DNA of 64,000 bases from Escherichia coli (GTDB lineage Bacteria > Pseudomonadota > Gammaproteobacteria > Enterobacterales > Enterobacteriaceae), in assembly GCF_003334405.1 (NCBI RefSeq), contig NZ_QOWM01000001.1. One strand, 5' to 3'. A model generated the notes under the pieces. It worked only from the letters and a program-made list of their open reading frames with translations, was not told where the DNA came from and did not search any database. Positions 77 to 7,240 of the stretch are shown in pieces (the first letter of the stretch is position 1; each line of letters starts with the position of its first letter). Made by a program: the position numbers and the translations under genes.

Positions 77-565
77 ATGAGACTGACATCTAAAGGGCGC
101 TATGCCGTGACCGCAATGCTTGACGTTGCGCTCAACTCTGAAGCGGGCCCGGTACCGTTGGCTGATATTTCCGAACGTCAGGGAATTTCCCTTTCTTATC
201 TGGAACAACTGTTTTCCCGTCTGCGTAAAAATGGTCTGGTTTCCAGCGTACGTGGACCAGGCGGTGGTTATCTGTTAGGCAAAGATGCCAGCAGCATCGC
301 CGTTGGCGAAGTAATTAGCGCCGTTGACGAATCTGTAGATGCCACCCGTTGTCAGGGTAAAGGCGGCTGCCAGGGCGGCGATAAATGCCTGACCCACGCG
401 CTGTGGCGTGATTTGAGCGACCGTCTCACCGGTTTTCTCAACAACATTACTTTAGGCGAACTGGTTAATAACCAGGAAGTGCTGGATGTGTCTGGTCGTC
501 AGCATACTCACGACGCGCCACGCACCCGCACACAAGACGCGATCGACGTTAAGTTACGCGCTTAA
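77..565 (+). CDS. iscR: Fe-S cluster regulator IscR (Rrf2 family)
   Basis: Complete 162-aa ORF, N-term [20 protein letters not shown]; first gene of isc operon synteny. Confidence 0.97.
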
Positions 566-575
566 TAAAAAGAAT

Positions 576-642
576 TCAGAATCAGGCCGGAGTGCTAAAT
601 ACTCCGTAAACACGGTCGTACATCCAGCCGGTAGCCTGATTC
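576..642 (+). promoter_or_regulatory. structured iscR-iscS intergenic RNA element (nested inverted repeats)
   Basis: Inner hairpin cggagt-gctaaat-actccg (588-606) enclosed by outer arms gaatcaggccgg / ccgg(ta)gcctgattc; lies in the iscRS intergenic region where sRNA-dependent differential operon decay is described. Confidence 0.4.
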
Positions 643-676
643 CTTGCATTGAGTGATGTACGGAGTTTATAGAGCA

Positions 677-1891
677 ATGAAATTACCGATTTATCTCGAC
701 TACTCCGCAACCACGCCGGTGGACCCGCGTGTTGCCGAGAAAATGATGCAGTTTATGACGATGGACGGAACCTTTGGTAACCCGGCCTCCCGTTCTCACC
801 GTTTCGGCTGGCAGGCTGAAGAAGCGGTAGATATCGCCCGTAATCAGATTGCCGATCTGGTCGGCGCTGATCCGCGTGAAATCGTCTTTACCTCTGGTGC
901 AACCGAATCTGACAACCTGGCGATCAAAGGTGCAGCCAACTTTTATCAGAAAAAAGGCAAGCACATCATCACCAGCAAAACCGAACACAAAGCGGTACTG
1001 GATACCTGCCGTCAGCTGGAGCGCGAAGGTTTTGAAGTCACCTACCTGGCACCGCAGCGTAACGGCATTATCGACCTGAAAGAACTTGAAGCAGCGATGC
1101 GTGACGACACCATCCTCGTGTCCATCATGCACGTAAATAACGAAATCGGCGTGGTGCAGGATATCGCGGCTATCGGCGAAATGTGCCGTGCTCGTGGCAT
1201 TATCTATCACGTTGATGCAACCCAGAGCGTGGGTAAACTGCCTATCGACCTGAGCCAGTTGAAAGTTGACCTGATGTCTTTCTCCGGTCACAAAATCTAT
1301 GGCCCGAAAGGTATCGGTGCGCTGTATGTACGTCGTAAACCGCGCGTACGCATCGAAGCGCAAATGCACGGCGGCGGTCACGAGCGCGGTATGCGTTCCG
1401 GCACTCTGCCTGTTCACCAGATCGTCGGAATGGGCGAGGCCTATCGCATCGCAAAAGAAGAGATGGCGACCGAGATGGAACGTCTGCGCGGCCTGCGTAA
1501 CCGTCTGTGGAACGGCATCAAAGATATCGAAGAAGTTTACCTGAACGGTGACCTGGAACACGGTGCGCCGAACATTCTCAACGTCAGCTTCAACTACGTT
1601 GAAGGTGAGTCGCTGATTATGGCGCTGAAAGACCTCGCAGTTTCTTCAGGTTCCGCCTGTACGTCAGCAAGCCTCGAACCGTCCTACGTGCTGCGCGCGC
1701 TGGGGCTGAACGACGAGCTGGCACATAGCTCTATCCGTTTCTCTTTAGGTCGTTTTACTACTGAAGAAGAGATCGACTACACCATCGAGTTAGTTCGTAA
1801 ATCCATCGGTCGTCTGCGTGACCTTTCTCCGCTGTGGGAAATGTACAAGCAGGGCGTGGATCTGAACAGCATCGAATGGGCTCATCATTAA
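677..1891 (+). CDS. iscS: cysteine desulfurase IscS
   Basis: ORF-track 653-1891 trimmed to ATG at 677 giving 404 aa, [19 protein letters not shown]; PLP-dependent class V aminotransferase family. Confidence 0.96.
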
Positions 1892-5849: not shown

Positions 5850-7133
5850 ATGACAGAAGCGATGAAGATTACCCTCTCTACCCAACCTGCCGACGCGCGC
5901 TGGGGAGAAAAAGCAACTTACAGCATTAATAATGACGGCATTACCCTGCATTTGAACGGGGCAGACGATCTGGGGCTGATCCAGCGTGCGGCGCGCAAGA
6001 TTGACGGTCTGGGCATCAAGCATGTTCAGTTAAGCGGTGAAGGCTGGGATGCGGATCGCTGCTGGGCATTCTGGCAAGGTTACAAAGCCCCGAAAGGCAC
6101 GCGTAAAGTGGTGTGGCCGGATCTGGACGATGCCCAGCGCCAGGAACTGGATAACCGCCTGATGATCATCGACTGGGTGCGTGACACCATCAACGCACCG
6201 GCAGAAGAATTGGGACCATCGCAACTGGCACAGCGTGCTGTTGATCTGATCAGCAACGTCGCGGGCGATCGTGTGACTTATCGGATCACCAAAGGCGAAG
6301 ATCTGCGTGAGCAAGGTTATATGGGGCTGCACACAGTCGGACGCGGTTCAGAACGTTCTCCGGTATTGCTGGCGCTGGATTACAACCCAACTGGCGATAA
6401 AGAAGCGCCAGTGTACGCGTGCCTGGTAGGTAAAGGTATCACTTTTGACTCCGGCGGCTACAGCATCAAACAGACTGCGTTTATGGACTCGATGAAGTCG
6501 GACATGGGCGGCGCGGCAACGGTTACCGGGGCGCTGGCATTTGCCATTACGCGCGGACTGAACAAGCGCGTGAAGCTGTTCCTCTGCTGTGCGGATAACC
6601 TGATTAGCGGCAATGCGTTCAAGCTGGGCGATATCATCACCTATCGCAACGGTAAAAAAGTTGAAGTGATGAACACTGATGCCGAAGGGCGTCTGGTGCT
6701 TGCCGATGGTCTGATTGATGCCAGTGCGCAGAAACCGGAAATGATCATTGATGCGGCGACCCTCACCGGGGCGGCGAAAACTGCGCTGGGTAATGATTAT
6801 CACGCGCTGTTCAGTTTTGACGATGCGCTGGCCGGTCGCTTGCTGGCGAGTGCCGCGCAGGAGAACGAACCGTTCTGGCGTCTGCCGCTGGCGGAGTTCC
6901 ACCGCAGCCAGCTGCCGTCTAACTTTGCCGAACTGAACAATACCGGAAGCGCGGCGTATCCGGCAGGCGCGAGCACGGCGGCGGGCTTCCTGTCGCACTT
7001 TGTTGAGAACTATCAGCAAGGCTGGCTGCATATCGACTGCTCGGCGACTTACCGTAAAGCGCCGGTTGAACAGTGGTCTGCGGGCGCTACGGGACTTGGT
7101 GTGCGCACGATAGCTAATCTGTTAACGGCGTAA
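5850..7133 (+). CDS. pepB: peptidase B (M17 leucyl aminopeptidase family)
   Basis: ORF 5763-7133 trimmed to ATG 5850 (427 aa, [21 protein letters not shown]); M17 motif NTDAEGRL. Confidence 0.95.
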
Positions 7134-7141
7134 ACTAATAT

Positions 7142-7240
<99 letters not shown>

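Follow-up and report, generated by a model that had tools for sequence, protein, structure and literature searches.

Introduction

When the small RNA RyhB binds the ribosome-binding site of iscS, the iscSUA part of the isc message decays and a stable, translatable iscR transcript remains (PMC3089445), the strong secondary structure of the iscR-iscS spacer being responsible for this RyhB-dependent accumulation of the iscR transcript (PMC12533949). The same RyhB/iscR mechanism is described in PMC5040110, PMC6497325 and PMC11572966, and all five papers credit it to Desnoyers et al. 2009; one of them terms RyhB repression of isc 'rather modest' (PMC6497325). The switch from the Isc to the Suf system has furthermore been linked to aminoglycoside tolerance (PMC6497325, PMC11572966).

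Several other described systems come close to this one. In the galETKM operon under Spot 42 and the nirBDC-cysG operon under NarS, a small RNA pairs within the polycistronic mRNA and represses its downstream cistrons, the upstream cistron remaining expressed (PMC3089445, PMC7038943), but iscRSUA differs from both in having a dedicated structured element that protects the upstream fragment. REP/BIME stabilisers, such as the malE-malF REP, are likewise extragenic imperfect palindromes at the 3' end of an upstream cistron, and both they and the element treated here are thought to block 3'-to-5' exonucleases, giving uneven expression within an operon; the present element, however, is single-copy, lacks the REP consensus, folds into a three-way junction rather than a simple hairpin and is coupled to a small RNA site immediately downstream. 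The Rfam family RF02783 ('IscS-1 ICR thermometer') occupies the same iscR-iscS junction, but in the short-spacer relatives Serratia and Hafnia, and has a different structure that spans the iscR 3' end and the iscS start. Closest of all is RF01517 (iscRS), which shares with the present element its locus, sequence, helices P1-P4 and proposed role in RyhB-induced differential decay of iscRSUA; nothing essential differs, except that the outermost long-range helix of the family consensus gains no support from pair counts here.

In this work we analyzed the iscR-iscS spacer of a 64,000-nt stretch of the Escherichia coli chromosome (hereafter, the window), in which a preliminary description, made from the sequence by itself, had reported a nested stem-loop and tentatively connected it to RyhB.

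Results

The iscR-iscS spacer holds the iscR stability element

The window opens with iscR and iscS, and its first 7 kb carries, according to the open reading frame list, iscR, iscS, iscU, iscA, hscB, hscA, fdx, iscX and pepB. The spacer between the first two genes (566-676) is 111 nt long. A 401-nt probe of this junction found one match each in 5425 of 5426 complete E. coli genomes, lying beneath annotated iscR and iscS, in agreement with the gene context originally assigned to the structure. Using the covariance models of Rfam release 15, we found that RF01517, the curated family for exactly this interval, matches the spacer minus one base, covering model positions 1-110 of 110 (E = 3e-37), between the iscR stop codon and the iscS start codon and on the mRNA strand. 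What lies at 566-675 is the iscR stability element, known before this work and catalogued in Rfam, reportedly described by Desnoyers et al. 2009, EMBO J 28:1551.

Table 1. Features of the iscR-iscS region, in window coordinates
Feature	Position	Strand	Basis
iscR coding sequence, upstream preserved cistron	77..565	+	ORF list; E. coli annotation
RF01517 full-length match, 'iscR stability element'	566..675	+	138.1 bits; gathering threshold 40
Leader UAAAAAGAAUUCA adjoining P1 on its 5' side, A-rich and single-stranded	566..578	+	Sequence reading
P1 5' arm GAAUCAGGC, outer helix	579..587	+	MFE; pair probabilities 0.98-1.00
P2 hairpin CGGAGUG-CUAAA-UACUCCG, hypervariable tip	588..606	+	Pair probabilities 0.85-1.00
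P3 hairpin AC-CGG / CCGGU, 12-nt loop UCGUACAUCCAG	610..632	+	Pair probabilities 0.68-1.00
P1 3' arm GCCUGAUUC	634..642	+	MFE; pair probabilities 0.98-1.00; covariation as for the 5' arm
P4 small hairpin beside the Shine-Dalgarno, sharing positions with the 5' part of the RyhB site	645..660	+	Rfam consensus; MFE
Predicted RyhB site: UGAGUGAUG (650-658), GGAGU (662-666), GAGCAAUG (672-679)	650..680	+	Best duplex
iscS coding sequence, the cistron with which the degraded iscSUA part begins	677..1891	+	ORF list (true ATG 677); annotation

The spacer RNA folds into a three-way junction

The RNA folding check proposed in the preliminary description gave a stable fold: the minimum free energy (MFE) of 560-680 was -34.7 kcal/mol (z -3.33) and that of the narrower interval 576-645 was -26.6 kcal/mol, compared to -14.2 +/- 2.9 kcal/mol for dinucleotide shuffles, none of 200 of which was as good (z -4.34). 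The stem-loop structure between iscR and iscS is real and evolutionarily conserved. It is a 64-nt three-way junction, in which a 9-bp outer helix, P1, encloses two hairpins, P2 and P3 (Table 1). P2 pairs over 7 bp (588-594 with 600-606), and P3 pairs positions 610-611 and 613-615 with 628-632, its loop being invariant in Escherichia, Citrobacter, Pluralibacter, Enterobacter Bisph1 and Pseudocitrobacter. The A-richness of the leader is kept in orthologues as well as in alleles carrying the ERIC-like insert described below, and by its sequence the leader may be a candidate Hfq (ARN)n site.

The nested stem-loop first reported thus stands as a structure, though not as a simple nested hairpin, and P3 and P4 had been missed altogether. 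Its inner hairpin, cggagt/actccg, lies at 588-593/601-606 as claimed and extends to 7 bp, its right outer arm ccggtagcctgattc occupies 628-642 as claimed, and the reported gap of about 35 nt to the iscS ATG is close to the 34 nt that separate the end of the element from position 677. The left outer arm gaatcaggccgg, placed at 576-588, is actually found at 579-590, 3 nt away, and the extension of the outer arms by a ccgg/ccgg pairing does not form, having a pairing probability of ~0 and costing 4.6 kcal/mol when forced. The extended rod that would run through both ccgg tetramers was rejected on these grounds, as it competes with P2 and P3, which use parts of the two tetramers (588-590 in P2 and 628-630 in P3).

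The junction is conserved in Enterobacteriaceae by covariation

For comparison, we fetched 80 loci from species-representative genomes with an IscR probe and extracted their spacers. The junction was found in Escherichia, Citrobacter, Pluralibacter, Pseudocitrobacter, Superficieibacter, Cedecea, Siccibacter, Shimwellia and Mangrovibacter, and also in several isolates labelled Enterobacter or Klebsiella. RF01517 reached at least its gathering score in 12 of 16 related junction loci, and a covariance model of our own detected 16 of 16. When folded as single sequences, most orthologues shared the junction architecture, with the sequence of P2 varying by genus.

Covariation was scored on a covariance-model alignment of 17 Enterobacteriaceae sequences, which was fitted to the model and is therefore biased towards the structure; the independent folds of the orthologues and slid-register controls nevertheless argue that the signal is real. 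Standard pairs make up 88.4% of the cells in this alignment, and changes on both sides occur at 13 pairs, compared to 36-50% paired cells and 3-5 double-change pairs in the slid-register controls, and none of 500 column shuffles reached the observed values. By helix, among the 17 species, P1 was paired in 99.3% of cells (with 2 compensatory and 4 wobble-only pairs), P2 in 91% (with compensatory changes at 6 of 7 pairs), P3 in 82% (at 5 of 5 pairs) and P4 in 90%, the latter with 0 compensatory changes because its sequence is conserved. The covariation of the arms that had been proposed as a check is thus present in orthologues. P1-P3 furthermore contain 25 G.U cells against 5 A.C cells, and hence the mRNA strand pairs better than its complement does (308 vs 288 of 331 cells). 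RNAalifold, run on a plain MAFFT alignment, recovered P1 and P4; owing to misalignment of the variable hairpin, it did not recover P2 and P3.

The outermost long-range helix of RF01517 (573-577/663-667) was 69% paired and had no compensatory change across the same 17 species. Part of the Shine-Dalgarno would lie within this helix, whose left arm is not constant in E. coli.

RyhB is predicted to pair directly downstream of the junction

The RyhB sequence is present at 100% identity once per E. coli genome; in the same strain, ryhB lies ~1 Mb from the isc locus, and it was not found in the 64,000-nt window. A description of RyhB as an antisense RNA expressed from this very spacer (PMC3896431) was disregarded, given the ~1 Mb distance and the absence of ryhB from the window. 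The single-stranded core of RyhB (nt 39-69) pairs best at 649/650-680, with -23.7 to -23.9 kcal/mol, a duplex ranking in the top 1% of 6396 control windows; when full-length RyhB was run against 155 nt with RNAduplex, 58% of control windows scored as well. The predicted site begins 8 nt past the 3' end of P1, its GGAGU block is the Shine-Dalgarno and its GAGCAAUG block includes the AUG. This outcome of the complementarity search suggested in the preliminary description, a best duplex directly 3' of the structure, agrees with the RyhB-iscS pairing tabulated at -26..+2 with -23.7 kcal/mol, which corresponds to 651-678 of the window (PMC3546686).

An alternative is that the element mainly controls iscS translation, either as an RNA thermometer or by Shine-Dalgarno sequestration, with helix 573-577/663-667, P4, or a pseudoknot between the P3 loop (616-624) and 655-663 as possible routes. 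We consider this very unlikely. The RF01517 consensus does pair 573-577 with the GAGUU of the Shine-Dalgarno region, but, as noted above, this helix shows neither full pairing nor covariation and its left arm is variable within E. coli. As for the pseudoknot, the P3 loop segment UCGUACAUC is complementary to GAUGUACGG, a stretch that includes the first two G's of the iscS Shine-Dalgarno, over 9 bp (-12.4 kcal/mol). Five to six genera have an invariant loop, and its few substitutions preserve the pairing with GAUGUACGG. Compared with shuffled loops, however, this duplex reached only p ~0.06-0.11 in most loci of the Escherichia/Citrobacter group (0.02 in L035 and 0.31 in L010), and did not exceed what shuffled loops gave in Superficieibacter, Cedecea, Siccibacter, Shimwellia and Mangrovibacter. 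The thermometer family RF02783 matches the same junction in Serratia and Hafnia, but had no match in the window even at E <= 10.

The element is not a REP sequence

Since the structure at the iscR 3' end has been described as a REP (PMC7038943), we weighed the alternative that a REP sits by chance after iscR and stabilises the upstream mRNA as REPs do elsewhere. The stabilising function would be analogous, and on reading the sequence a faint resemblance to REP arms can be seen in ATCAGGCC and GTAGCCTGAT, but their order is the reverse of the REP arm order. A 75-nt version of the element, moreover, has a single location in each of 5425 E. coli genomes (blastn, word size 11, E <= 1), and the REP consensus (blastn-short) had no match in 566-676, although it found true REPs elsewhere in the window. 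These hits, at 7142-7175, 7210-7238 and 44150-44240, validate the consensus used. We therefore regard the REP reading as very improbable and reject REP membership: the element would act in the manner of a REP stabiliser, but it is single-copy, has no consensus match and is itself no REP. A count of the arm motif over the window gave 10 dispersed copies against 5.4 expected, which is not significant.

The hits used for validation are genuine REP/BIME clusters in their own right, the first of them located just past an open reading frame that ends at 7133.

That the element is instead an intrinsic terminator or attenuator ending iscR transcripts, with iscSUA made from a promoter of its own, is extremely unlikely, for although a GC-rich stem does follow the stop codon, and the Rahnella spacer (L026) does have a terminator-like hairpin with a U-tract, the tail after P1 reads UUCCUUGCAUUG, without a U-tract, a scan of the spacer (566-676) revealed no terminator-like or promoter-like site, and iscRSUA is treated as one transcript in the literature (PMC12533949, PMC11572966).

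The RyhB site is found well beyond the range of the junction

The RyhB site motif, GTGATGTACGGAG...GAGCAATG, is conserved across Enterobacterales well past the range of the junction and is carried by Serratia, Yersinia, Hafnia, Dickeya, Pectobacterium, Brenneria, Budvicia, Tatumella, Mixta and Rosenbergiella. In several of these genera the spacer measures 48-70 nt and is essentially without upstream structure, and the iscR-iscS spacers of Vibrionales and Alteromonadales measure ~10-35 nt. Judging from this distribution, the junction looks like a later Enterobacteriaceae addition to the stretch that separates the iscR stop codon from the RyhB site, which is older. Serratia, Yersinia, Hafnia and Dickeya keep the RyhB site without any upstream structure, indicating that RyhB control of iscS does not in itself require the structure.

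The same spacer holds other structures in other lineages. The RF02783 thermometer matches are at 1896-2079 of the Serratia silvae locus (L011, 118 bits) and at 1896-2097 of the Hafnia paralvei locus (L015, 62.5 bits). An extra, non-homologous hairpin is found between the iscR stop codon and the stability element in seven Enterobacteriaceae loci (L003, L005-L007, L010, L014 and L035), and unrelated stable hairpins occupy the same place in Erwiniaceae, Providencia and Rahnella (L026-L029, L033, L036, L037 and L043), that of Rahnella L026, with its U-tract, looking like a terminator.

The element varies among E. coli strains

In 1875 of 5425 E. coli genomes, the 75-nt element shares only 80-90% identity with that of the window. 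The representatives of these alleles that we fetched (L081-L090) nevertheless have the same IscS accession, with one exception, and the same IscR accession wherever the fetched stretch reached iscR. Over the spacer plus the initial 30 nt of iscS, the KO11FL, O145 and O157 alleles show 10-11 differences from that of the window, 9 of which fall in the tip of P2 (591-603). The P2-tip alleles form a pair-preserving series, from U-A through U.G to C-G, and P2 of the O157/KO11FL allele is the same as in E. albertii. Among the E. coli alleles, the stability of P2 ranges from -7.8 kcal/mol, in the K-12 type allele of the window, to -11.7 kcal/mol.

A second polymorphism is an insert of ~129 nt directly after the iscR stop codon, present in 490 of 5426 E. 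coli genomes (9%), where it lengthens the spacer to 240 nt; in E. coli 2017.01.04CC it spans 310-438 of locus L091, its site corresponding to 565/566 of the window. It is a dispersed repeat, found at a median of 5 and up to 10 places per genome, which resembles ERIC, going by the ERIC primer sequences. A homologous insert is found at the same site in Citrobacter werkmanii (L002, 1992-2120), with 89% mean column identity.

Discussion

The three-way junction is very probably the cis-acting iscR stability element of the polycistronic iscRSUA mRNA. Upon iron starvation, the trans-encoded RyhB, together with Hfq, would pair at 650-680, cover the iscS Shine-Dalgarno and start codon and block translation, and the untranslated iscSUA part would be cut by RNase E and then degraded. 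Decay of the upstream fragment in the 3'-to-5' direction would halt at the base of the junction, so that an iscR-only mRNA would accumulate and still be translated, and IscR, presumably mostly apo-IscR, would then favour the switch from Isc to Suf. The dependence on RyhB, the decay of iscSUA and the dependence of iscR accumulation on the spacer structure are taken here from secondary descriptions in the literature, and it is by analogy to REP stabilisers that we infer a barrier to 3'-to-5' exonucleases. The original interpretation of the structure, as protecting the iscR cistron while RyhB triggers decay of iscSUA, is supported by the RF01517 match (138.1 bits), the stable fold, the covariation, the RyhB site and the literature alike.

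As the element was described in 2009 and is catalogued in Rfam, its confirmation brings no new biology. What the analysis offers are refinements, namely the anatomy of the three-way junction, the evidence that it is not a REP, a RyhB site older than the junction, and polymorphisms at the level of strains.

These polymorphisms bring up a further idea, that the element is more than a passive exonuclease block and is tuned between strains, to which the invariant and complementary P3 loop, the hypervariable P2 tip and the ERIC-like insert in 9% of genomes all point, and which we nonetheless hold to be rather unlikely. The P3 loop could form a pseudoknot or a specific binding site, which could set basal iscS translation or compete with RyhB. 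Together, the P3 loop, the P2 tip and the insert could give the iscR fragment a lineage-specific stability and hence lineage-specific settings of the Isc-to-Suf switch.

As the iscR stability element, the junction belongs to a textbook case in which one small RNA splits the fate of a single operon mRNA. It would let E. coli keep making IscR while the iron-costly Isc machinery is shut down, and the IscR retained in this manner would feed the Isc-to-Suf switch, which also affects aminoglycoside susceptibility.
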